Positions 21,742 through 45,222 of a DNA stretch of 64,000 bases are shown piece after piece (the stretch's first letter is position 1; every line of letters begins with the position of its first letter). The DNA is taken from positions 192,001 to 256,000 of the IMG/VR virus record IMGVR_UViG_3300028048_000001. One strand, 5' to 3'. Source of the stretch: a virus (lineage: Duplodnaviria; Caudoviricetes). The translations under genes were made by a program, and so were the position numbers. The notes under the pieces are model-generated. The model was not told the DNA's origin. It saw nothing but the letters and a program-made list of their open reading frames with translations, and made no database searches.

Positions 21742-22572
21742 TTATTTATCAATATATATTCCTGATAAAGAATCTTTTAATACTTTAACAAATGCTTTAT
21801 AATTTTTACTATTGCTATCTGGAATAGCAAATATAATATTTGTAAAATTATATTTTTCTGATAATAAATATTCTTTAAATAAATGTGCTACTTCTTCAGG
21901 ATTTTGTCTAAATACTCCACATCCAAAAGCTCCTAAAATAAGAGTTTTTAAATTTTCTGTTTCTGCAATATCTAGTACAAATTTAATTCTGTTAGATAAT
22001 GCAACAGTATTAAATTTTTCTAATATAATTGCATCAGCATTTCTAATATTAGGTGCAGCTACAGTAATAACTGCTACATTTATAATATTTTTATTTTCTC
22101 TTAGAAACATTATATTTGGACTATAAATTCCTCTATCTAAATAGATAAAATTTATAGTTGGATTCATTTTACATTCATATCTATTTGCTAAATAATAAGT
22201 ATTACTAAAGGATTTTAAAGTTTCATATAAATTGCTTTCATGACATAATGCTTCTTCTTGTGCAGAAGAACCTTTTAAAAACATTCCACCTGGATATTTA
22301 AAAGAAGCAAAATTTAATATTCCAATGTTACTGTAAAAATTGTTAATCATATATAATGCAGATACTGTATCTGTATCTAAAATCTGAATAATAGGTTTGA
22401 TTCCTGTTTCAGATCTTTTACACATTTCTGGTGTATATATTTTAGAATTAGCAATAGATATATTTGTTATATCTTGATAATTTTCTTTTATCATTTTATG
22501 ATGATTTTTAGCTTTTTCTGCTAATTCTAATTTGTATAGATCACTATTTTTTGTTCTAAAAACAAAATTCAT
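21742..22572 (-). CDS. TIGR02452/DUF2263 macrodomain protein (bacterial PARG-like ADP-ribose glycohydrolase)
   Basis: LNFAS.KYPGGMFL.GSSAQEEALC, IYSPNI, ITVAAPN, LILGAFGCGVF.QNP. Confidence 0.9.
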   Translation of the reverse strand: MNFVFRTKNSDLYKLELAEKAKNHHKMIKENYQDITNISIANSKIYTPEMCKRSETGIKPIIQILDTDTVSALYMINNFYSNIGILNFASFKYPGGMFLKGSSAQEEALCHESNLYETLKSFSNTYYLANRYECKMNPTINFIYLDRGIYSPNIMFLRENKNIINVAVITVAAPNIRNADAIILEKFNTVALSNRIKFVLDIAETENLKTLILGAFGCGVFRQNPEEVAHLFKEYLLSEKYNFTNIIFAIPDSNSKNYKAFVKVLKDSLSGIYIDK

Positions 22573-26816: not shown

Positions 26817-27407
26817 TTACATAGGTTGTATATCAGTAGAAGGAATACTTGGCATTGCTTTAGCAATTGCAACTTGATCAAAATAAAGTGTAGAATTATT
26901 ATTAGCAAGAGCTATAATTTTAATTTTAAAACAAGCAGAAGATTTATAAATACCATAAAAATCAGATATAAAAGAATATTCTACATATTTATTTATATCA
27001 CCAATATTTATTCCTGTAATTGTTTTTGTTTCAAGTAAATCTCCTTCTATTTCATCAAGTGAATCATAATAATAAATTTCTATTTTTGCAAGTTCAATAT
27101 TATCTATATTATTTGATTTCATCCTAATATTTACAGAAACATTTCCAAAAGGAATTCCAGCAACAGATGTCTGAAATAAAATCTTATTTGTAGAAGGAGA
27201 TGATATCATAATAGCAGAACCGTTATTTGCATATTCATCAATAGTTTTAGTACCTTCTGTAATAGTAACAGATCCGCTGGTAATATCAGTAGTAGCATCT
27301 TCTGCATCTATAATTCTACCAGCTAAAGAAGATCCAGACTGAGTTTCGGGATAATATATATTTCCTTCCCAATCTTCTATTCTAATATTTCTTCTTTCAA
27401 TAGCCAT
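26817..27407 (-). CDS. Tail-fibre-associated protein with beta-sandwich (carbohydrate-binding-like) domain
   Basis: N-terminal IYYPET motif; directly downstream of the long fibre gene; terminator 26779-26807. Confidence 0.45.
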   Translation of the reverse strand: MAIERRNIRIEDWEGNIYYPETQSGSSLAGRIIDAEDATTDITSGSVTITEGTKTIDEYANNGSAIMISSPSTNKILFQTSVAGIPFGNVSVNIRMKSNNIDNIELAKIEIYYYDSLDEIEGDLLETKTITGINIGDINKYVEYSFISDFYGIYKSSACFKIKIIALANNNSTLYFDQVAIAKAMPSIPSTDIQPM

Positions 27408-27439: not shown

Positions 27440-30400
27440 TTAATAAGCAACTTCATTACCATCAATTATAACACCAGTAATTTTTTCTCCTTTGACCCAA
27501 GCAGTCTTATCAATAACAATATCACTAGGCACAGCAGTACTATCTGTCTGAGATTCAAGAGTAGCTGCTTTAATTACAAACCCATTTGGATAATATCCGG
27601 CTTGAACAGTAACACTATCTCCTGCATTAATTGTAACATTACTTCCAGTTCTTATAGGTATTGTACCAATTAATTTAACACCATTAGCCCAAGCTATTTT
27701 ATTTTCTAATATATCATTTACAGTAGCATCTCCAGGAGTTTGAGTATCCGTTCCAGCTGCTATAACCGTTCCAGTACCATCATGATATCCTTTTGGAATA
27801 ATATATGAATCTCCTCCATTAAGAGAAATATCAACAGTTCCAATATTAGGCATTGTACCAGTTATTTTAGTACCATTAACCCAAGCAGTTTTATTAATAA
27901 GAATATTATCAGATATAGCATCACCAGGAGTCTGAGATGCTAAAGTAGCAGCAATTATTTTACCAGTACCATCATGATATCCTTCTGATATAGTATGAAT
28001 AGAACCACAATTAATAGTATCATTTTCTGATCCTATATCTGGCATTGTACCAGTTATTTTAGTACCATTAACCCAGGCGGTTTTATTAATAAGAATATTA
28101 TTAATTACAGCATTGCCAGGAGTTTGAGATGCTAAAGTAGCAGTTGTTATAACTCCAGTACCATCATGATATCCTGCTGATATAGTATGAGTAGAGCCAG
28201 CAAGTAACTCTTCCGATTCAGAACCTATATTAGGTATAGTACCAGTTAATTTAATACCATTAGCCCAAGCAGTTTTATTTATTAAAATATCAGAACTTTC
28301 TGCAGTAGCTGATGTTTGAGATGCTAAAGTAGCAGCAATTATTTTACCAGTACCATCATGATATCCTTCTGATATAGTATGAATAGAACCACAATTAATA
28401 GTATCATTTTCTGATCCTATATTAGGTATAGTACCTGTAATTTTTTCACCATTAACCCAAGCGGTTTTATTTATTAAAATATCAGAACTTTCTGCAGTAG
28501 CTGATGTTTGATCTGATAAATTTGTAGCTACTATAACTCCATTACCATTATGATATCCTTCTGATATTGTAAAACTTTCTCCGGCGAGTAATTCTTCATA
28601 TATTGTATCTATAATTGGTATCGTACCAGTTAATTTAATACCATCAACCCAAGCAGTTTTATCTTTAATAATATCATCTGCTGTAGCAGTACCAGGAGTT
28701 TGAGTATCTGTTCCAGCCGCTATAACCGTTCCAGTACCATCATGATATCCTTTTGGAATAGTATATGAATCTCCTCCATTAAGAGAAATATCAACAGTTC
28801 CAATATTAGGCATTGTACCAATAAGTTCAATACCATTAACCCAAGCAGTAGATCCTTCTATTATATTATCTTCAGTAGCAGTACCAATGGTTTGTTCATT
28901 TAAAGATTCTGAAGTTATAACTTCAGAACCATCATGATATCCTACCGGAATAGTATATGACTCTCCTGCAGATATTGTTTGACTTTCTGGTTCTACTATT
29001 GGAATCGTACCTACAACTTTTTCACCATTAACCCAAGCAGTTGATCCTTCAAGCATATCTGTTGCTGTAGCTGTACCAGATGTTTGATCTGATAAATCTG
29101 CAGAAGATATTGTAACTTGAGTATCATGATATCCAGTACGAAGAATAAATGATTCATTAGCATACAATACAGTATCTGAATCTGTAATTGTAGGCATCGT
29201 ACCAGTCTGTTTACTTTTAGCATTTGTATTATAAAAAGTTTTTCCAGATACTACATGTTCTGGATATGCATTTCCTGTTAATTCTAATGTACCAGTAAGT
29301 TTTTGACCATCAACCCAAGCTGTTTTTGGAGATAATATATCTGAAACAGTAGCAGTACCTTCTGTTACAGATTCTATAGAAGGAGCTGTTATTTTACCAG
29401 AACCATTATGATATCCAGCTGGAATAGTATAAACTTCACCAGAGTCTAATCTCTTTGTAATTGCTCCTCTGTTTACCATTGTTCCAGTTTCTTTAAAATC
29501 TGGATAAGTTGTATAAAAAGTTTCCCCTTCTAATACATGTGCTGTTTTAGCATTACCAGTTAATTCTAATGTACCTTCTAATTTTGTAAAAGGATCATCA
29601 GAATAAAATTTATATCCTCTTAGCACTTTATCTGCAGTAGCATCTCCAGTAAGTTCAAGCTCACCAGTAATTTGTTGATGTACATTATTATTGTAAAAAG
29701 TTTTTCCTTTTAATACTTGTACAGAAATTGCAGTACCTGTTAATTCTATATTACCAGTTAATTTAACTCCATCAACCCAGGCAGTTTTATCTTTAATAAT
29801 ATCATCTGCTGTAGCAGTACCAGGAGTTTGAGCATCCGTTCCAGTTGCTGTAATTATTCCAGTACCATCATGATATCCTTTTGGAATAGTATATGACTCT
29901 CCTCCATCAAGAGAAATATCTTGATGATTTATAACAGGTATAGTACCTGCTATTTCTGTACCATTAACCCAGGCAGTTGATCCTTCAAGTAGATCATTTG
30001 CTGTAGCAGTACCAATAGTTTGTTCTTCTATAGATTTTGTCCAAATACGATCATTACCAGTATGATATCCACTTAAAACACTATAAGATTCTCCTGGCTG
30101 AAGTAATATTTCTACAGTTTGACGCAATGGCATTGTACCAGTTAATTTGACTCCATTAACCCAAGCAGTTTTTCCTTCAAAAATATCAATAGATTTTGCA
30201 TCAGCCACAGTTTGAGAAGCTAAATCTTTACCTTTAACAATACCATTTCCAGAATGATAACCTTCTGGAATATTATATATTTCATCACAAGCTACTATTT
30301 CATTTAAATTTTCAATTTTTGGCATAGTACCTGTAATTTTTTCGCCATTAACCCAAGCAGTTTTTCCTTCTATTAGATCGTTTGGTTCCATATTAGCAAT

Positions 30401-31282
30401 TGTAACATTAGCAATACCTGTTACTTGTATTGCTGTAAGGCCATTATAATATCCTGCTGGGATATAAAATATATCATCATTTGTTAATATTCTGGTTTCT
30501 TCTCCAGAATGATCTATCATGGTACCTTCAACTACTGTATTATAAAGAGTAGAATAGAATTTTTTCCCTTCCAATACATATTCTTTTTGAGTTGTAGCTT
30601 CAGATAACCATTCTCTAACAGCATCTTCTGTCTTAAAAGTTCCAACTATTTTCTCACCATTAACCCAAACAGTTTTACCTAAAGCTATATCTTTAGCTTC
30701 TGCATCACCTACAGTTTGAGATGAGAGATCTGCAGCAGTTATAACAGATTCTCCAGAAGATAATCCATATGGAATAATATACTCTTCTCCTGGTAATAAT
30801 ATTTTATCTATACGATATAAATATGGAATAGTACCAATTATTTTTTCTCTTCTAACCCATGCAGATTTACCAGACATTATATCATCTGCAGTAGCATTAG
30901 CATCCTGTTCATTAGAATCTACATCTAAAGTTCCAACTATTTTTTCACCATTAACCCATGCTACTTTGCCAGCAGCTATATCTTCTGCTTTAGCTGTACC
31001 ATAAGTATATTCAGATATACTAGGAGCTATTACTATTCCAGTACCATCATGATGCCCTTCTGGAATTATATAATAAGATTCTCTTCCATCTTCACTTGGT
31101 TCAAGAACTATATGAACAGATCCATTTTCTGGCATTGTACCAACTAATGGTTCTCTAGTAATAGCATCTTGAAATATATATCCTGACATTACACTATTAG
31201 ATGAAGCAATAGTTCCATTTCTATTAATCTCGGTAGACCTATTTGCTGCATCATTATCATAGTATAAAATATTATCAGCCAT
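27440..31282 (-). CDS. Long tail-fibre protein built of ~64-aa repeats
   Basis: Many (G/A)xAxxxDIxxxKTAWVNGxKxTGTxP...YTIPxGYHDGTG units; 192-bp DNA periodicity. Confidence 0.8.
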   Translation of the reverse strand: MADNILYYDNDAANRSTEINRNGTIASSNSVMSGYIFQDAITREPLVGTMPENGSVHIVLEPSEDGRESYYIIPEGHHDGTGIVIAPSISEYTYGTAKAEDIAAGKVAWVNGEKIVGTLDVDSNEQDANATADDIMSGKSAWVRREKIIGTIPYLYRIDKILLPGEEYIIPYGLSSGESVITAADLSSQTVGDAEAKDIALGKTVWVNGEKIVGTFKTEDAVREWLSEATTQKEYVLEGKKFYSTLYNTVVEGTMIDHSGEETRILTNDDIFYIPAGYYNGLTAIQVTGIANVTIANMEPNDLIEGKTAWVNGEKITGTMPKIENLNEIVACDEIYNIPEGYHSGNGIVKGKDLASQTVADAKSIDIFEGKTAWVNGVKLTGTMPLRQTVEILLQPGESYSVLSGYHTGNDRIWTKSIEEQTIGTATANDLLEGSTAWVNGTEIAGTIPVINHQDISLDGGESYTIPKGYHDGTGIITATGTDAQTPGTATADDIIKDKTAWVDGVKLTGNIELTGTAISVQVLKGKTFYNNNVHQQITGELELTGDATADKVLRGYKFYSDDPFTKLEGTLELTGNAKTAHVLEGETFYTTYPDFKETGTMVNRGAITKRLDSGEVYTIPAGYHNGSGKITAPSIESVTEGTATVSDILSPKTAWVDGQKLTGTLELTGNAYPEHVVSGKTFYNTNAKSKQTGTMPTITDSDTVLYANESFILRTGYHDTQVTISSADLSDQTSGTATATDMLEGSTAWVNGEKVVGTIPIVEPESQTISAGESYTIPVGYHDGSEVITSESLNEQTIGTATEDNIIEGSTAWVNGIELIGTMPNIGTVDISLNGGDSYTIPKGYHDGTGTVIAAGTDTQTPGTATADDIIKDKTAWVDGIKLTGTIPIIDTIYEELLAGESFTISEGYHNGNGVIVATNLSDQTSATAESSDILINKTAWVNGEKITGTIPNIGSENDTINCGSIHTISEGYHDGTGKIIAATLASQTSATAESSDILINKTAWANGIKLTGTIPNIGSESEELLAGSTHTISAGYHDGTGVITTATLASQTPGNAVINNILINKTAWVNGTKITGTMPDIGSENDTINCGSIHTISEGYHDGTGKIIAATLASQTPGDAISDNILINKTAWVNGTKITGTMPNIGTVDISLNGGDSYIIPKGYHDGTGTVIAAGTDTQTPGDATVNDILENKIAWANGVKLIGTIPIRTGSNVTINAGDSVTVQAGYYPNGFVIKAATLESQTDSTAVPSDIVIDKTAWVKGEKITGVIIDGNEVAY

Positions 31283-31384
31283 TTGGGATTTTAGACTCCT
31301 TTAAGCAATATTAATATAATGTGCTCAAAGCCTAAGATTCAACTCCATAGTAATATTATGGCTATTCTATATAGGAGGAATATT

Positions 31385-32701
31385 ATGCCATTTACAGATT
31401 CTATTAAAATGGTTGATGTTGTTATATCAGATAAAGAATTAATTACAGCATCTCCTATTGATGTTGCTAATGGAAAAGTATATATTGGAACCACATCACA
31501 ATTAGAAACTGGTATTATGCCTGTTGCAGCATATTCTGGTGATATTAGTTTGCTTTCTGGAGAATCACACGTTGTACCTTTTGGAAAGATTCCACAATCT
31601 TATACGGTTACAGCTGCAGCTTTATCAAATCAAACTCCTGGAAATGCTATATCTGATAATATTCTTATTAATAAAACTGCCTGGGTTAATGGTGAAAAAA
31701 TAACCGGTACAATGCCAAGCATTGATTCTGAATCAATAGAATTACAATCTGGTGAAAGCTATACTATACCAGAAGGATATCATGATGGTACTGGAGTTAT
31801 AACAACTAGAGGAGTATCAGATCAGACTCCAGGAGATGCTGTAGCTTCTAATATTTTAAATGGAAAGATTGCATGGGTAAATGGAAGATCTATAACTGGT
31901 ACAATGCCTAATATTGGAACTGTTGATGTTTCTCTTAATGGAGGAGATTCATATACTATTCCAAAAGGATATCATGATGGTACTGGTAAAATAATTGCTG
32001 CTACTTTAGCATCTCAGACTTCTGCAACAGCAGTATCAGGAGATATAGTATCTGGGAAAACTGCTTGGGTTAATGGGGTTAAAATAACTGGTAATATTAC
32101 AAAAATTACTGCTTCTACAGAAATACTTCCATTAAATGGAACATATATTATTCCAAGAGGATATCATGCTGGAACTGGAAAAATTACACAGAATATTGAA
32201 ATTTTAGAAGGACAAACTGTTGCTTCAGCATTTGAACCTCAAATTATTCAAACTGCTGGAAAATTTATGAGTGGAGATATCACTGTAACAGGTATTAATG
32301 CTCTTAATTATAAGAGAACTATAGAAGCTGTTAAAGATAGCAGAAATATAGAAATATCTAATTATCAGATGGATGTAACAAATAATAGTTATACTATTCA
32401 TCTTAATGTAGATAACTGGCATGATAATGCTACAATGAATGTTTATCATTTTATATTTACAGATCTTATCGATTCTGTTAATAATAGTGTAGATCTTGAT
32501 ACTATTATCGTATTAGATTGGGGTAATAGTAATACTATAAATTATATTTATAAATTTGGAAATGTATCCATTACAGCTTTTCTTGAAGAAGGAACTAATG
32601 CTCATAGTTTTACTATTAATGGTATTAGTAGTGGAAAAATTTCTATAATTGAATTATTCGCATCAAGACAATTTGGAGATAGTCATGATACAAATGACTA
32701 A
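31385..32701 (+). CDS. Second, divergently transcribed tail-fibre paralogue with a unique C-terminal domain
   Basis: Same repeat type; start at ATG 31385 after AGGAGG; AACT-N6-TA at 31341-31352. Confidence 0.8.
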   Translation: MPFTDSIKMVDVVISDKELITASPIDVANGKVYIGTTSQLETGIMPVAAYSGDISLLSGESHVVPFGKIPQSYTVTAAALSNQTPGNAISDNILINKTAWVNGEKITGTMPSIDSESIELQSGESYTIPEGYHDGTGVITTRGVSDQTPGDAVASNILNGKIAWVNGRSITGTMPNIGTVDVSLNGGDSYTIPKGYHDGTGKIIAATLASQTSATAVSGDIVSGKTAWVNGVKITGNITKITASTEILPLNGTYIIPRGYHAGTGKITQNIEILEGQTVASAFEPQIIQTAGKFMSGDITVTGINALNYKRTIEAVKDSRNIEISNYQMDVTNNSYTIHLNVDNWHDNATMNVYHFIFTDLIDSVNNSVDLDTIIVLDWGNSNTINYIYKFGNVSITAFLEEGTNAHSFTINGISSGKISIIELFASRQFGDSHDTND

Positions 32702-32723: not shown

Positions 32724-33734
32724 ATGATAAGACCTCAGTACAATTATACTAGTCTTAGTCAATTTTTTAATTTTCTTAAGACATCTGATGGGTATCTTGA
32801 AAAAGCTAATGGAACAAATTTAGGAGATTTTACACCATCTGGTAAAGTTGTAAATGCAGGAAGTGCAAATTATACTGTTTATTGGAAATGGTATAAAGAA
32901 CTTGGATATGGAAATATGCAAGGTTCTGCTTATTGTGCTTGTGGAGTTTCTACAATGTTAGTATCTGCTTTTGGATTAGCAAAAGCTAAAAAACTTCTTT
33001 GTGGAGACCTTTTTGTATATTGCCCAACTGGGTATAATCAATTTAAAAATTCTAAAAGAATTTATACCAATCCTAAACCAGGAGATGTAGTATTTTTCTA
33101 CAGTGATAATATGGGAAGATATAGCCATACTGGTTGGGTTGTTGGAGTCGATTCTAATGGTAAAGGATATACTACCTGGGAAGCTAATACCTCTTCTGGA
33201 AATGATATTGTTATTAGAAATGGTGGTGCAACTTGTTATAAGCATTATACTTTAGGACAGAGAAAAGTAGCTTTTGGTCGTCCTGATTGGGAAGGAAATG
33301 GAATTTCTTATGAAACTTCTAAAGAAATCGAATCTGTAGAAATCGGAACAGATAGTAATAAGATTTCTTGCACTACAGAAGTTCTTAATGTTAGAGATTA
33401 TCCTTCTAATGGAAATGTAATTGATTCTATTAAAAAAGGTGAAAAAATAACTCCAACAAAGAAAACTTTTGTTGATGGTAAAGCTTGGTATTATATTGAA
33501 GAGAAAAAAGGTTGGGCTTCTGCATCTTATTTTACTGGATGGATTCTTGAAAAGTCTAATAATAGATGGTGGTATTTATTAGAAGGATATAAATATTACG
33601 TTGATAAGATTGTTAATATTGGTGGTAAGAGATATTTCTTCGACTCTAATGGATATATGTTTATAGGAACATTTCTTATTCAAACAGATTCTTCTGGAGC
33701 AATTATAGAGTATAGGAATTCTATGGAAGAATAA
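32724..33734 (+). CDS. Endolysin/peptidoglycan hydrolase: CHAP + SH3b + cell-wall-binding repeats
   Basis: AYCACGVS (Cys), SHTGWV (His), EANTS; LNVRDYP SH3; WWYL/RYFFDSNGYM repeats. Confidence 0.85.
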   Translation: MIRPQYNYTSLSQFFNFLKTSDGYLEKANGTNLGDFTPSGKVVNAGSANYTVYWKWYKELGYGNMQGSAYCACGVSTMLVSAFGLAKAKKLLCGDLFVYCPTGYNQFKNSKRIYTNPKPGDVVFFYSDNMGRYSHTGWVVGVDSNGKGYTTWEANTSSGNDIVIRNGGATCYKHYTLGQRKVAFGRPDWEGNGISYETSKEIESVEIGTDSNKISCTTEVLNVRDYPSNGNVIDSIKKGEKITPTKKTFVDGKAWYYIEEKKGWASASYFTGWILEKSNNRWWYLLEGYKYYVDKIVNIGGKRYFFDSNGYMFIGTFLIQTDSSGAIIEYRNSMEE

Positions 33735-35617: not shown

Positions 35618-36187
35618 TTAATCTTTAAACTTTTCTATTCCATATATTGATTTATATTTATATAGAATATTTCTTAATTTTACTCCAGTATAATTATTTT
35701 GTATTATTTCATTACATAATACATGTTTTATTGCATTTTCACATGATGCATAATTATATAACCATTCTGTAATATAATTTATATCACAAATATTATAAAA
35801 ATTATCAAATGCTTTCTTTACATTATTTGAAATTTTAAGATCATTTTTAACTAAATAATTGTTACTATTTTCATTAATAGCTTTTTTCATTCCATCATTA
35901 TAGCATTTATCAATATATGATTTAGCAACTTCTATTCTATTAGTTGTTATATTATCCGAATTTTCTGATGATAATGCTTGCTTTATTAATTCAGACATAT
36001 TAACAATAGTAGCTACCCAACTACTAGTTTGACATATATCTTGATTATAATTAACATGCCTCCATTTAAGAGTATGCCAATAAAAAATTGTTAAAGGTCT
36101 TTTTATTTCTTTTACATCACTTTTTACTCCTTCTAATAAAGATTCTATATATTTAATATTAAAAATAGGCATTAAAATATCCTCCAT
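35618..36187 (-). CDS. Divergent DUF29-like protein (paralogue of 36715-37248)
   Basis: HTLKW...QTSSWVATI; shared NNYTG/KNYTG near the C-terminus. Confidence 0.55.
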   Translation of the reverse strand: MEDILMPIFNIKYIESLLEGVKSDVKEIKRPLTIFYWHTLKWRHVNYNQDICQTSSWVATIVNMSELIKQALSSENSDNITTNRIEVAKSYIDKCYNDGMKKAINENSNNYLVKNDLKISNNVKKAFDNFYNICDINYITEWLYNYASCENAIKHVLCNEIIQNNYTGVKLRNILYKYKSIYGIEKFKD

Positions 36188-36675
36188 ATATTATTATTTA
36201 TAAATTCTTTGGTATTATCTGAAACTTTTCTTATTTTAAAGCATTCTTTTATCATATTTATATAATATTCAATATTTGTAAGATTTTCTTTATTGAAATC
36301 ATTATTGTCAATAGTGCAATTTAAATATTTTATACATTTATCGTAAGCTATTAAATATGCTTTAGACATATCATAAAAATCAAACCTGCTATCATTTTTT
36401 AATAATATTATATTAGATAATAAATCCTGAATATTATAATCATCGATATATTCATTTTTATCATATTTATATTTTATACATATAATATCATTAAATATTG
36501 AAAATATTTTTCCTTCATAATATTTTATCATATTATTATATTCACTAATTATTATTGCACATGCTTGAGATGCAGTATCTTCTGATATTATACCAGAATC
36601 TATTTCATTTTTATTAGCACTTACAAACTCATCAAGTTCTAATATATTATTTTCATCAATATTTATTAATTTCAT
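36172..36675 (-). CDS. Hypothetical protein (paralogue of 37241-37786)
   Basis: Start MKLIN after AAGGAG; shares L..DEF..., IKY, LKND..F and NND. Confidence 0.6.
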   Translation of the reverse strand: MKLINIDENNILELDEFVSANKNEIDSGIISEDTASQACAIIISEYNNMIKYYEGKIFSIFNDIICIKYKYDKNEYIDDYNIQDLLSNIILLKNDSRFDFYDMSKAYLIAYDKCIKYLNCTIDNNDFNKENLTNIEYYINMIKECFKIRKVSDNTKEFINNNIWRIF

Positions 36676-36714
36676 TGTATTTATTTCTCCTTTTAAATTT
36701 ATATATACCCCCAT

Positions 36715-37248
36715 TTATTTATTAAATAAATATATAAAATCTCCAGTATAATTTTTCTTTATAAAATCATTATTAATTATATACTTTATCTTAGAATTAT
36801 CAGACCTTCTGATTATATAATCTATTAATTTATTAAATATTAAAAGTCTATCTATATCTATAAAATTATAATATACAGAATCATACTCATCAATATCTGA
36901 AATATAAATTTTATTATTAATATCATCATTTATCTCTTCTGCAAGACGAGTTTCTTTTATTGCTATTCTTTTTCCAAATTCATATGCTTCATTATTTCTT
37001 ACTTTTATATTATTATATACAGATCTTATTAAATCTTGTTCTCTCATCTTTTTATTTTTATATATTAAATCTACAATATGCATGTAACTAGAAGAAATAC
37101 TTCTAACCCAAGATACAGACTGTTTAGAAGGTTGATATTTCCATTTTAATAAATGACAAAATATAACCGATATATAGGATATTAAATTTTCTGTAATATC
37201 TTTTATTGATTCTTCAGTTAAATAATCTTCATTTAAATATTTAATCAT
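36715..37248 (-). CDS. DUF29-family protein
   Basis: HLLKWKYQP.KQS.SW.RSI and AY..G...A.KET.L motifs. Confidence 0.75.
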   Translation of the reverse strand: MIKYLNEDYLTEESIKDITENLISYISVIFCHLLKWKYQPSKQSVSWVRSISSSYMHIVDLIYKNKKMREQDLIRSVYNNIKVRNNEAYEFGKRIAIKETRLAEEINDDINNKIYISDIDEYDSVYYNFIDIDRLLIFNKLIDYIIRRSDNSKIKYIINNDFIKKNYTGDFIYLFNK

Positions 37249-37786
37249 ATAAAAATTCCTCCATATAAATATTTAATTTATCTAAAAAGTACTTATCTCT
37301 ATTAGTATCAGTGCAACAATTTTTAAATTCATTCAATCTTATATTTATTTTTAAGAATTTATCAATATCTGATAAGTCATTTATAATTTCTTCTGTAAAA
37401 TCATTATTATTCCATGGACTATTTTTTAATTTTTCTACTATATCTACGATTTTCTTCTTTTTAAAATCTATAGATGAAAGACTAAATTTAATATCATTCT
37501 TTAAATATGATATATTTCTTATATAGGTATTCAATGCACCAATATCTGGTCCTATATCTTTGCTCAAATATTTAATACTAAATATTGATGTTAAAATCTG
37601 CATTATATAAAAATCATATTGTTTATTTATAGAATCATATAAAGCTAAGCAAGATGAGACTAAAGGTCCAATCTCATCTTTATTTATTTCTCCATTATTT
37701 AAACTATTAAAATGATTTTTAATAAATTCTTCAAAATCTATTATTAATTCGACATCATTTTCAACTTTAAATTTTATCTTTTCCAT
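37241..37786 (-). CDS. Hypothetical protein, first gene of the DUF29 operon
   Basis: Start MEKIK after GGAGG; early-type motif at 37810-37819. Confidence 0.6.
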   Translation of the reverse strand: MEKIKFKVENDVELIIDFEEFIKNHFNSLNNGEINKDEIGPLVSSCLALYDSINKQYDFYIMQILTSIFSIKYLSKDIGPDIGALNTYIRNISYLKNDIKFSLSSIDFKKKKIVDIVEKLKNSPWNNNDFTEEIINDLSDIDKFLKINIRLNEFKNCCTDTNRDKYFLDKLNIYMEEFLYD

Positions 37787-37863
37787 CTTATATAACCTCC
37801 ATTTCAAAATTATGATATCTATTTGATTCCACTTTTATATAATCAATTAATATAGGAGCTAGT

Positions 37864-41121: not shown

Positions 41122-42090
41122 TTATTCATTAAATATATTTTTAAAATTAGCTTTAACTTTACCAGTATTCACATTACAATAAATCATTGTTGTGTCTAAT
41201 TTAGAGTGACCTAAAAGTTCTTTAATTTGTTCAATTGGCATACCTTTATCCATAGCATGAGTTGCCATAGTTCGTCTAAATCTGTGAGGATGAACATTAT
41301 CAACTCCGCTTTTTAAACCTAATTCTTTTAGGATAAGTTGTGCTGCTCTTATTGTTAATTTCTTTTTTGGTTTATCTAGATGACTAAATAGTGGTTCTTC
41401 TGGTTGAGCGTTTCTCTCATTTAAATAAATTTTTAACCATTTTATACATATATTAGATAAGTAAACTATTCGTTCTTTATGACCTTTACCAAAAACTACA
41501 ACTTCTCCTTCTGAGAAGTCTATATCTTGAACATATAAACTTAAAGCTTCTGATATTCTACATCCAGTAGAATAAAGAAATTCTAGAAATGCTCTATCTC
41601 TGCTATTATTACATACTGATCTTAATAAAGTTATATCTTCTTCAGTAAAAGCTTTTTTAACTTTCTTTTCAACTATTATTTTCTCTATTCTATGACATGG
41701 ATTTCTTTCTATGAATTCTTCATTTACTAGAAAATCATAGAAAGCTGATATAAATCGTATCATAGTTTGAGTTGTACTTGCTTGTAAATTATGTTCTTGT
41801 ACATAATATGATAAATAATTTTTAATATCAGATGTAGTTAATTCGGTTAAATTTCTGTTTGGATAAAATTTTCCTAATTTTCTTGCTTCTGATGTATAAT
41901 GTAATATAGAAGATTGAGATAAACCAACCAGTTTTTTATTTTGTATGAATCTGTCTATCAATTCTTCATTTGGTAGAGAGTTTCTTGTAGTTTTGAGAAT
42001 GATTTCTAATACATTTTTGAGTTTAGCCAGTTGATATTCGTTTAAATCTGGCTCCATTAATTTTAGAATCATTTCTACATTACTTACCAT
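41122..42090 (-). CDS. Tyrosine recombinase (XerD-like, invertase-type subfamily)
   Basis: SAM-like N-domain; RDRAFLEFLYSTGCRISE, GKGHKER, HPHRFRRT, LLGH and TTMIY give the full R-K-H-R-H-Y set. Confidence 0.95.
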   Translation of the reverse strand: MVSNVEMILKLMEPDLNEYQLAKLKNVLEIILKTTRNSLPNEELIDRFIQNKKLVGLSQSSILHYTSEARKLGKFYPNRNLTELTTSDIKNYLSYYVQEHNLQASTTQTMIRFISAFYDFLVNEEFIERNPCHRIEKIIVEKKVKKAFTEEDITLLRSVCNNSRDRAFLEFLYSTGCRISEALSLYVQDIDFSEGEVVVFGKGHKERIVYLSNICIKWLKIYLNERNAQPEEPLFSHLDKPKKKLTIRAAQLILKELGLKSGVDNVHPHRFRRTMATHAMDKGMPIEQIKELLGHSKLDTTMIYCNVNTGKVKANFKNIFNE

Positions 42091-42849: not shown

Positions 42850-45222
42850 TTATTTAAGAATTTCTGCTTTTAAAATAATATCAGATTTTGTATTAATTAT
42901 CTTTTCACCTTTACTTATAGATGAAGCTAAATTAATATCTTTTACTTTTATTTGTAAATTATTACTTGTTGTAGTAATACTTAAAACATCATTATCTGTT
43001 ACACCAAATACTTTATATATTCTATCGTTTTTTCCTAAATCTATTACTTTACTTCCAGCTTTATTTCTTTGAGATCTTTCAAATCCACTAGTAAGGAATT
43101 TATTTACTTTACCAGATTCGGTTACTACTAATATATATTTAGTAGGATTATTTTTATCTGTGTAAATAATACTCATTCCCTCCATTGGACCATGTTTTCC
43201 TCCCATACCTAAAGTTCCAATAGTATTTCTTTTTAATAAAGATACATCTTTGGTAGATATTCTTAATGCTTTATCTACACTATAAAGAATAAGATCCATA
43301 TTATCAGAAATTATTTGAGTACTTACAATATCATCATCTGGAATTATTTTAGAATATATAATTCCACTAGGAGGTACATTAAGAAAATCTTGAATATCGA
43401 GCTTCTTTAAAGTATTATTTTTAGATAATATAGCAATATATATTTTTTGTTTAAGCTTAGATAATGTAATTAATTGTGGTTCATATATAACAGAAATAAT
43501 GTCTGCTGTAAGTCCTTTTAAAACTCCTTTAATATCAATACCTGGATCCGATTTAGATATTATTGGAATCTTATGAATAGGTAATTTAAAAACTCTTCCT
43601 TTATTATCAAATAAAATAAGATTTTCTATATTACTAACATTTACAACAAACTTTGGTCTATCTCCTTTTATAATATTTACCGGATCATTTTCCATTAGTT
43701 TTCTAATATAGTTATTTTCAGTAATAACCATTTTAAAATTACCATCTGGAATATTTCCCAAATTACTTACTTTAATTACTTTACATATTCTATTTCTTCC
43801 ATATTTTTTCTTAATTGCAATTAATTCATTTCTTACATCATCTAAAATTAGTGAATCATTTGATAATCTATCTTCAAGCCATTTCTCTTCATTAGATAAT
43901 TTATCAAATTCTTCTTTATATTTAGCAAAATATCCTCTGGATAATTGTTTAATTTGTGCATTAATAATATAAGAAGCTTGAATATTTGTTAATCCATATT
44001 TTTTGATTAATAATTCAATTAATTCATTATCTGTAGATTCTTTTCTTTTCTTAATAAGATCAATAATTTTATCAATATCTTTAGAACCTACAACTTTAAT
44101 AAATGCATCTAATCTATGTAATCTTGTTGATACAACATAATTTCTTGCTGCATATTCTTTAATTTTATTATTAATAGCAAATTGAATAAATAGATTAATA
44201 TATTCTTTATAAGATAATCTTACAAGTTCTGTTCCTAAAACAACTTCAAAATTTACTCTAAAAGATTGTTCACATGGAGTATATTTGTAAAGAGCTTCTT
44301 TAACAAAATTTACATCAGTACCTTTCTTGAGTTTAATTACTATTCTTACTCCATATTCATTTTTAGATTCATCATTAATATCTATAATTTGAGGGAATTT
44401 TCCATTATCAATTCCTTCTTCAATTTTAGATACTACATTTGAAGTGCCATAAGATGGTAATGATGTTATAGTAATATATGGATAATCATTTTTATCATAA
44501 GTGACTTCCATAGTAGCTCTAGCTCTATAATTACCTTGCCCTTTATTACAAATATTTTGCCAATCTGTATCTATAATATCACAAGGTAAGCAATGATCAG
44601 GAATTAAAATAACAGGACTTTTAGGATTATCAATTACTCTTAAAGTAGCATCTATTACTTCATTTATACAATGTGATGGAAGATCGGCTTTAACACCAGT
44701 ACCTATTCCTCCCAAAATTCCATTAATAAGAAGCAATGGAACTTTTACAGGCAAGTACTGAGGTTCATATCTTTCATTTGTATAAGTAGGGTTCCAATCT
44801 ACTACTTCTTTGTTATTTGCTAAAGATCCACATACACATTCGAGTCCAAATGGATTTAATCCACATTCGGTATATCTTGCTGCAGATTGTGGATCACCAG
44901 CTACAGATCCCCATCCACCTTGACCATTTACTATAGGCATTTTAATCTCAAAATAATTAATTAAAGTTTTAAATGATGGATATGAACTACCATGAGGATG
45001 ATAGTTTCCCATAACAACACCATCGACTTTTTGAGATTTAACTGTTTTTGGATATAATGCTTTTTCATCATTTAATAATGTATAAATAATTCTTCTCGTA
45101 ACAGGTTTTAATCCATCTCTAGCATCTGGTAATGCTCTTACCAAATTAACAGCTAACGTATATAATGCTAAATCAGATATATATTGATCATGGGCTATAT
45201 GTTTGAGTATCCGTTCTGCCAT
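42850..45222 (-). CDS. gyrA: Type IIA topoisomerase/DNA gyrase subunit A
   Basis: RALPDARDGLKPV.RR, YHPHG, AARYTE (catalytic Tyr), beta-pinwheel CTD. Confidence 0.92.
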   Translation of the reverse strand: MAERILKHIAHDQYISDLALYTLAVNLVRALPDARDGLKPVTRRIIYTLLNDEKALYPKTVKSQKVDGVVMGNYHPHGSSYPSFKTLINYFEIKMPIVNGQGGWGSVAGDPQSAARYTECGLNPFGLECVCGSLANNKEVVDWNPTYTNERYEPQYLPVKVPLLLINGILGGIGTGVKADLPSHCINEVIDATLRVIDNPKSPVILIPDHCLPCDIIDTDWQNICNKGQGNYRARATMEVTYDKNDYPYITITSLPSYGTSNVVSKIEEGIDNGKFPQIIDINDESKNEYGVRIVIKLKKGTDVNFVKEALYKYTPCEQSFRVNFEVVLGTELVRLSYKEYINLFIQFAINNKIKEYAARNYVVSTRLHRLDAFIKVVGSKDIDKIIDLIKKRKESTDNELIELLIKKYGLTNIQASYIINAQIKQLSRGYFAKYKEEFDKLSNEEKWLEDRLSNDSLILDDVRNELIAIKKKYGRNRICKVIKVSNLGNIPDGNFKMVITENNYIRKLMENDPVNIIKGDRPKFVVNVSNIENLILFDNKGRVFKLPIHKIPIISKSDPGIDIKGVLKGLTADIISVIYEPQLITLSKLKQKIYIAILSKNNTLKKLDIQDFLNVPPSGIIYSKIIPDDDIVSTQIISDNMDLILYSVDKALRISTKDVSLLKRNTIGTLGMGGKHGPMEGMSIIYTDKNNPTKYILVVTESGKVNKFLTSGFERSQRNKAGSKVIDLGKNDRIYKVFGVTDNDVLSITTTSNNLQIKVKDINLASSISKGEKIINTKSDIILKAEILK

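Follow-up and report, generated by a model that had tools for sequence, protein, structure and literature searches.

Two divergent genes built of 64-residue units

The window analysed here is a stretch of 64,000 base pairs (bp), bases 192001 to 256000 of a 274,241-bp virus record (IMG/VR IMGVR_UViG_3300028048_000001) that has direct terminal repeats and a guanine-plus-cytosine (G+C) content of 26.6%. Judged by gene content, its source is a jumbo phage, because the products encoded in the window include a helicase, a gyrA-like protein, and a beta-like subunit of a multisubunit RNA polymerase. Our subject is a pair of fibre-like genes within it, a long one (L) and a short one (S), which lie head to head, each with its own ribosome-binding site, and which share stretches of DNA in inverted orientation (Table 1). 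A first-pass annotation, made from the sequence alone, had read these stretches as a candidate fibre-shuffling system. It placed the two genes on either side of a spacer of about 100 bp, in agreement with the 102 bp that we measured from the corrected start of S; this true start is the ATG at 31385, which lies behind an AGGAGG ribosome-binding site, and the homologues, of 433 to 446 amino acids (aa), begin with MPFTDS.

Both genes are made of units of 192 nucleotides (nt), or 64 aa, with the pattern ...SYTIPxGYHDGTG...KTAWVNGxKITGTMP; individual units are cited below by gene and by the residue number of the GYH motif. L consists of an N-terminal region and about 15 such units, with GYH motifs at residues 75, 276...1228; about 10 aa follow the last of them (...DGNEVAY), and there is no distinct C-terminal cassette. 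S begins with a conserved N-terminus (MPFTDSIK...). Four units follow, the first degenerate and the other three clear (GYH at residues 130, 194, and 258), and then a unique C-terminal beta-sandwich domain of about 130 aa (residues ~308 to 435). At residues ~510 to 620 of L (window ~29420 to 29750, minus strand), the 64-aa units are interrupted by three shorter repeats of about 30 aa (ELTGxA...VLxGxxFY...). These ELTG repeats look like the latter half of a 64-aa unit, and also like the segment at the N-terminus of S, which suggests that the unit may have arisen from a shorter module plus an inserted hairpin.

The sequences and a structural model indicate that L and S are probably tail-fibre or receptor-binding proteins, and they are probably trimeric. 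Both fall in PHROG 13589/38337, of unknown function, and a search of the fibre proteins against Pfam and NCBIfam gave no match. Searching a phage collection with tblastn returned distant "tail protein" repeats only, and no near-identical DNA was found in that collection. A model of S built from 48 homologues (predicted local distance difference test [pLDDT] score of 81) consists of repeated small beta units and the C-terminal beta-sandwich, which aligns weakly (Z 5.0 to 6.3) with C-terminal domains of tail fibres and tailspikes and also with a Csp protease domain; the best matches in BFVD are metagenomic entries auto-labelled "Tail protein" (E 1e-18 to 1e-5). Against the PDB, the whole-S model had no Foldseek match at E <= 1e-3, and a profile search of PDB sequences gave nothing below E 0.39, with no solved structure among the sequence relatives. 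A model of two repeat units (pLDDT 67) had no structural match at Z >= 2, and a search of the ESM Atlas returned only the proteins' own cluster. In the orthologues of S, the N-terminus is retained and the three units occupy the same places, but in some of them the C-terminal domain is longer and of a quite different kind (P0060, P0079, P0089, and P0114). Swapping of C-terminal domains on a constant N-terminus is the usual pattern for receptor-binding proteins.

Shared inverted tracts and probable gene conversion

The inverted matches that had been reported between S and L were all recovered as described. The first half of S194 (31892 to 31986) is the reverse complement of 27771 to 27865 in L1164 with 2 mismatches in 95 positions, and from 31897 onward it is that of 28731 to 28820 in L844 with 1 mismatch in 90. 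The second tract of S194 (31965 to 32020) matches the reverse complement of 27929 to 27984 in L1100 perfectly over 56 positions; it is also the 52-nt inverse of 28317 to 28368 in L972, and it overlaps the first tract over a 20-mer to which we return below. A third shared tract lies in the degenerate first unit of S; its partner (27885 to 27921) is the second half of L1100, and its junction falls outside the 20-mer. That the matches share one reading frame had been noted as well; all 26 exact S/L matches of at least 18 nt do so, which is trivial because these are homologous coding repeats. Codon choice is more telling. Codons for the same residue are identical in 25 of 26 and 16 of 17 positions of the two S194 tracts, compared with 11 of 19 in the rest of the same unit and a share of 0.68 over all unit pairs; under the genes' own codon usage, agreement of this kind would arise by chance with probabilities of ~1e-6 and ~1e-5. 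Because synonymous sites in the tracts are almost fully identical, against 0.68 overall, the identity of the tracts is attributable to shared DNA descent and not to chance or to constraint on the protein.

We consider it likely, from these and the following comparisons, that the cause is recent gene conversion among the 64-aa fibre repeats and that inversion, if it occurs, is no more than a rare by-product. Gene conversion had been kept in the first-pass annotation as a fallback, and the replacement of a patch within S shows it directly. The S proteins of strains that are 96% and 93% identical in S (P0004 and P0005) differ from the S of the window by 11 to 13 substitutions, and these are packed into residues 176 to 194, that is, into the first half of S194, where the tract in the window equals L844/L1164. 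Strains that are 99% identical vary within that tract at V182I and D188E, and both states are present in other L units. The longest exact matches between S and L measure 58, 56, and 52 nt here; in nine relatives that also carry both genes, they reach 22 to 34 nt at most.

Within L, the comparison with the relative L010 points the same way. The two L proteins are both 1280 aa long and have the same unit register, yet near-identical units occur only in that of the window (L468/L844/L1164 at 79 to 89% nucleotide identity; L972/L1100 at 87%, with 106 nt exact); it is for this reason that we regard the L units as homogenised by conversion without a change in copy number and not as products of new duplication. 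The junctions of the mosaic units lie at different sites: in S194 within the 20-mer, in L1100 at unit nt ~110 to 135, where L972-like sequence switches to L1036-like sequence, and in the first unit of S at ~105 to 120, with L1100-like sequence from nt ~121. The locus therefore combines the marks by which gene conversion is recognised, namely, synonymously identical tracts with diverged flanks, a lineage-specific patch, and homogenisation at fixed copy number. Elsewhere in the family the copy number does vary (L of 1057, 1152, 1280, or ~1730 aa; a tail one unit shorter in P0141, the L of a close relative), as expected for a recombining array. The longest of these frames, that of the relative L095 (Ga0247611_10014563), has exact repeats of up to 71 nt within the gene and S/L matches of up to 25 nt, and it appears to represent another lineage with recent repeat expansion or homogenisation.

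The 20-mer GGATATCATGATGGTACTGG, which encodes GYHDGTG, had been singled out as a possible crossover site. As listed in the annotation, it occurs without mismatch at 31775 and 31967 on the plus strand, in S, and at 27771, 27963, 28155, 28347, 28731, and 29859 on the minus strand, in L; it was not found elsewhere in the 274,241-bp genome. S194 does change donors inside it, from L844/L1164-like to L972/L1100-like sequence, as had been observed: the unit follows L844/L1164 over nt 1 to 80 (1 mismatch) and L972/L1100 over nt 58 to 110. That this breakpoint falls in the longest stretch common to all units has no special meaning, however, because breakpoints can be mapped only to stretches that both donors share. 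The annotation suggested asking whether synonymous sites are more conserved in the 20-mer than in the rest of the repeat, and they are not: its two Gly columns use the same codon in 0.74 to 0.77 of pairs, within the range of the other Gly columns (0.44 to 0.88). In L and S, 97 to 98% of the Tyr, His, and Asp codons are TAT, CAT, and GAT; because this bias fixes them, only two Gly codons and one Thr codon of the 20-mer are informative. Codon usage alone would be expected to give the exact 20-mer for about 1/8 of GYHDGTG motifs, and it was observed in 8/8; we attribute this identity to codon bias combined with recent common descent of the units. Copies in L and S number six and two here, one and two in L010, and one and none in L011 and L012, where the motif is written in synonymous variants and S lacks the 20-mer. 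On inspection of the sequence, no arm-spacer-arm symmetry was seen in the 20-mer beyond ATCATGAT, which is imposed by the Tyr-His-Asp codons. A role for the 20-mer as a selected DNA site was rejected, given that the agreement of its Gly codons is unexceptional and that it is not conserved as DNA in distant relatives.

In the mechanism that we propose, non-reciprocal homologous recombination would take place among the units, within L and from L into S, in the lineage of this phage; the direction of transfer was presumably from L to S. Conversion tracts would begin and end in stretches common to all units, so that the GYHDGTG 20-mer would be one junction among several. Occasional resolution with crossover would change the copy number when it joins direct units of L, and between L and S it would invert a central block of 1.9 to 4.2 kb and exchange the C-terminal parts; such inversions would be rare by-products at most, not a maintained diversification device. 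The genome holds a RecA-family gene outside the window (425-aa frame, genome 264335 to 264769, minus strand), which, although its match is weak (29 bits summed), probably encodes a UvsX/RecA-like phage recombinase. Its presence fits active homologous recombination, and the phage's own protein may well take part in it. On this reading, a familiar mechanism is at work in a new family, and the locus is no novel type of switch. It would offer a clean, datable case in which gene conversion has remodelled the receptor-binding apparatus of an uncultured jumbo phage: a whole sub-unit tract was replaced between strains whose S proteins otherwise share 96% identity. It also defines a widespread, uncharacterised 64-aa fibre repeat, and it suggests that the composition and length of a fibre shaft can change quickly without horizontal transfer.

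Table 1. Genes, spacer elements, and shared tracts of the L/S locus (window positions)
Feature	Position	Strand	Remarks
L, long repeat-built fibre-like gene	27440..31282	-	1280 aa; PHROG 13589, E 2e-150, unknown function
S, short fibre-like gene	31385..32701	+	438 aa from ATG 31385
Putatively converted tract, first half of S194	31892..31986	+	inverse of 27771-27865 (L1164) and 28731-28820 (L844)
Second putatively converted tract, S194	31965..32020	+	56-nt perfect inverse of 27929-27984 (L1100)
Third shared tract, degenerate first unit of S	31644..31680	+	37-nt exact inverse of 27885-27921
Partner tract, unit L1164	27771..27865	-	sister copy L844 at 28731-28820
Partner tract, unit L1100	27929..27984	-	L1100 has a 106-nt exact direct repeat with L972
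Divergent spacer between L and S	31283..31384	.	102 bp; holds two conserved blocks, with the ribosome-binding sites of the two genes on either side of them
Spacer block 1, TATTAATATAATGTGC	31309-31324		conserved in six relatives
Spacer block 2, TTCAACTCCATAGTAAT	31338-31354		conserved in six relatives

Possible inversion of the central block

At the centre of the first-pass annotation stood the inference that recombination across any of the inverted pairs would turn the central block around and re-pair the C-terminal parts, which would make the locus a candidate shufflon. The in-frame geometry holds: from nine exact tracts of 30 to 58 nt, the predicted products of a flip are S' proteins of 246 to 1006 aa and L' proteins of 712 to 1472 aa. 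The idea of a shuffling system is not supported, because the identity is confined to one lineage, the 20-mer is not conserved as DNA, the junctions vary, there is no invertase, and the long contigs are canonical. When related genomes were compared for alternative arrangements, all 17 loci that include both gene starts showed the canonical one, with the N-terminal parts of L and S on either side of the spacer, transcribed away from it, and the C-terminal part of S on its own N-terminus. About 42 contigs belong to the window's own lineage, three of them 222 to 282 kb long, and all encode a canonical S of 437 to 438 aa; the one metagenome scan found canonical loci only, at <=74% identity. In a collection of viral contigs searched with the S-specific flank of the 95-bp tract, no other contig of this lineage was found. 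A search for the C-terminal domain of S on proteins of 806 to 2300 aa, where a reciprocal chimera would be expected, found none, which is weak evidence. One protein considered as such a product, P0024, was rejected, being a truncated canonical S that is 85% identical to the S of L010 over its whole length, and the odd tail of P0140 matches nothing.

Several observations weigh against our account, in which inversion is at most rare and the two proteins are fibres. Two singleton ENA proteins, P0029 (374 aa, on a contig of 1257 bp) and P0094 (310 aa, on a contig of 1035 bp), join the N-terminus of S to the last three units of L. P0029 follows P0007, the canonical S of its strain, up to the GYHDGTG of S194, after which the L units run to ...DGNNTQY. 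In P0094 the departure from S comes one unit before that, within KTAWxNGxKITGxMPNIG. In an L090-like genome (L of 1152 aa), crossovers of S194 and of S130 with L972 would give products of 194 + 180 = 374 aa and 130 + 180 = 310 aa, exactly the lengths observed. Inversion may also be frequent within populations, since assemblies report the majority form only. Finally, the assignment to fibre function has weak evidence behind it, namely automated BFVD labels, fold matches of the C-terminal domain at Z of 5 to 6, and gene context. The two chimeras may be rare but real inversion variants; they could equally be jumps of the assembler across the shared tract on low-coverage fragments. If they are true, inversion occurs in nature, and the same recombination that converts the units would also make isomers that exchange fibre tips.

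Taken further, the chimeras would speak for shuffling that needs no recombinase, in which the inverted coding repeats recombine by homology, and so flip the block, often enough for populations to carry functional isomers, with the tip of S on long shafts and the tail of L on short ones, a variability of use to the phage. We regard this as unlikely. The geometry and the frame permit it, as do the nine exact tracts; P0029 and P0094 match the predicted products of two different crossover points in a related lineage; a RecA-like gene is present in the phage; and lytic cyanophages are documented to isomerise by homology at their inverted repeats (bioRxiv 10.64898/2026.02.14.705889). On the other hand, the chimeras are singletons found only on contigs of 1.0 to 1.3 kb, P0007, the canonical protein to which they correspond, forms a cluster of 13 members, the search for a long reciprocal chimera gave nothing, and chimeras number 0 among the contigs of the window's own lineage, which is the one with the longest repeats. 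The long inverted repeats are missing in relatives, and therefore nothing is being maintained. A flip would leave both genes expressed, altering shaft length and switching no tip on or off, because each gene retains its own predicted promoter in either orientation, so that the gain is not evident; it would also exchange the predicted promoters of the structural operon behind L and of the endolysin gene behind S. The broader proposition that general recombination at inverted fibre repeats yields viable inversion isomers in this family of ~250- to 290-kb phages, with P0029 and P0094 as two of the products, seems to us quite unlikely; if it were true, anchors, shaft lengths, and tips would be re-paired without a dedicated invertase, in what might be called a homology shufflon.

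A programmed shufflon, in which an Xer-like recombinase uses the 20-mer as its crossover site and inverts DNA between the six and two copies, is very improbable. A tyrosine recombinase is indeed encoded 8.4 kb from the end of S (41122 to 42090, minus strand, 322 aa), the only gene of the Phage_integrase family; the 20-mer is perfect eight times, and one mosaic junction maps there. The shufflon recombinase Rci is likewise a tyrosine recombinase, acting on asymmetric sites. The protein encoded here is XerA/XerC/XerD-like, however, scoring 218 bits against XerA and 39 bits against an invertase subfamily model whose cut-off is 222. Its gene adjoins the gyrA-like gene (42850 to 45222) and is present in one copy in each of four related ~250- to 290-kb genomes, 10 to 66 kb from the fibre locus; it is kept even in relatives that have no shared S/L tracts and in those whose S has no 20-mer. 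Being unlinked and retained in this way, it is presumably a core gene that serves a different purpose, perhaps the resolution of multimers, and its candidacy as an invertase was rejected on family scores, non-linkage, and its presence in relatives without shared sites. Nor does the 20-mer look like such a site, as it lacks arm-spacer-arm symmetry beyond the Tyr-His-Asp codons, other junctions lie elsewhere, and its conservation is explained by codon bias and recent descent. A search of the complete 274-kb genome for the Resolvase family (PF00239) gave no match at E <= 0.1, with control genomes positive.

It is scarcely credible that this one assembly is at fault, with reads of the L repeats wrongly threaded into S: repeats of 50 to 100 bp can mislead short-read assemblers, but the same mosaic S (>=99% identical, with the same tract) recurs as the product of a 16-member cluster that is present on more than 30 contigs from ENA and Joint Genome Institute (JGI) assemblies, three of them 222 to 282 kb long.

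Known systems and the surrounding genes

Fibre inversion systems surveyed earlier (PMC9881135) include Gin and the G segment of Mu, Cin and the C segment of P1, Min of p15B, and the R64 shufflon (Rci/sfx). Like these, the L/S locus has inverted repeats within the coding sequence of a fibre or adhesin, and an inversion would join constant to variable parts without loss of the frame; as in Min and the shufflon, multiple sites would allow several outcomes. Unlike the Gin, Cin, and Min systems, the locus has no invertase in or beside the segment, and the genome encodes no serine recombinase. The repeats of L and S are ordinary homologous coding units, not dedicated short sites, and they are not conserved in relatives; both predicted promoters lie inside the segment, so that nothing would be switched on or off. 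With regard to the shufflon in particular, no Rci-type recombinase lies next to the cluster, the candidate crossover site is not kept at the DNA level across relatives, and L and S are two complete genes, not one constant N-terminus with silent C-terminal cassettes. In these respects the locus lacks what defines a shufflon or a Gin/Cin/Min switch.

Other parallels are found where general recombination acts. In the lytic cyanophages A-1(L), N-1, and the Elbi group, inverted repeats of 400 to 700 bp are conserved in position, and both isomers have been shown by polymerase chain reaction, by reads, and among isolates (bioRxiv 10.64898/2026.02.14.705889). The genome studied here is similarly of virulent type, with inverted repeats able to flip a segment without a known dedicated recombinase; its repeats, in contrast, measure 30 to 95 bp and belong to one lineage, and the long contigs show no isomer but the canonical one. 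In mosaic T-even fibre genes, according to a published account (PMC3157838) and a paper of 1998 cited in it, conserved coding motifs serve as recombination junctions. L and S resemble these genes in that short conserved coding motifs bound the recombination tracts and that general recombination acts without a dedicated enzyme. They differ in that exchange takes place between two divergent paralogues of one genome and also among ~15 tandem 64-aa units, and in that their repeat family (PHROG 13589/38337) is uncharacterised, with no solved structure or Pfam model found.

The tufA and tufB genes of Salmonella and Escherichia coli are inverted paralogues kept partly identical by gene conversion, and the same intermediates occasionally lead to inversion. 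L and S are also inverted paralogues, probably kept alike by conversion, but they are repeat-built structural genes in a phage genome, and what is converted is sub-unit tracts of 40 to 100 nt, not whole genes.

The spacer between L and S contains two blocks that are kept in relatives even though the fibre proteins there are only 45 to 75% identical; read on the minus strand, the TATTAATATAATGTGC block has the form CACA-N6-TA. The two blocks are probably promoter elements, one per direction; as a divergent pair they would be candidates for recognition by the RNA polymerase that the phage itself encodes. L heads a minus-strand operon that continues with genes for proteins of 196 (26817 to 27407), 323, and 846 aa, and the 323-aa product matches a virion structural PHROG. 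The gene that follows S (32724 to 33734) encodes a CHAP endolysin with weak, sub-threshold matches to choline-binding repeats, which hints at a Gram-positive host.

Two further observations concern genes farther from the locus. A 276-aa protein (21742 to 22572, minus strand) has a microbial-type poly(ADP-ribose) glycohydrolase catalytic domain (PF10021, E 5e-25) and could be a counter-defence enzyme directed against ADP-ribosylating host systems. On the same strand at 35618 to 37807, two DUF29-domain proteins of 189 and 177 aa alternate with two uncharacterised proteins of ~180 aa, forming a duplicated two-gene module.

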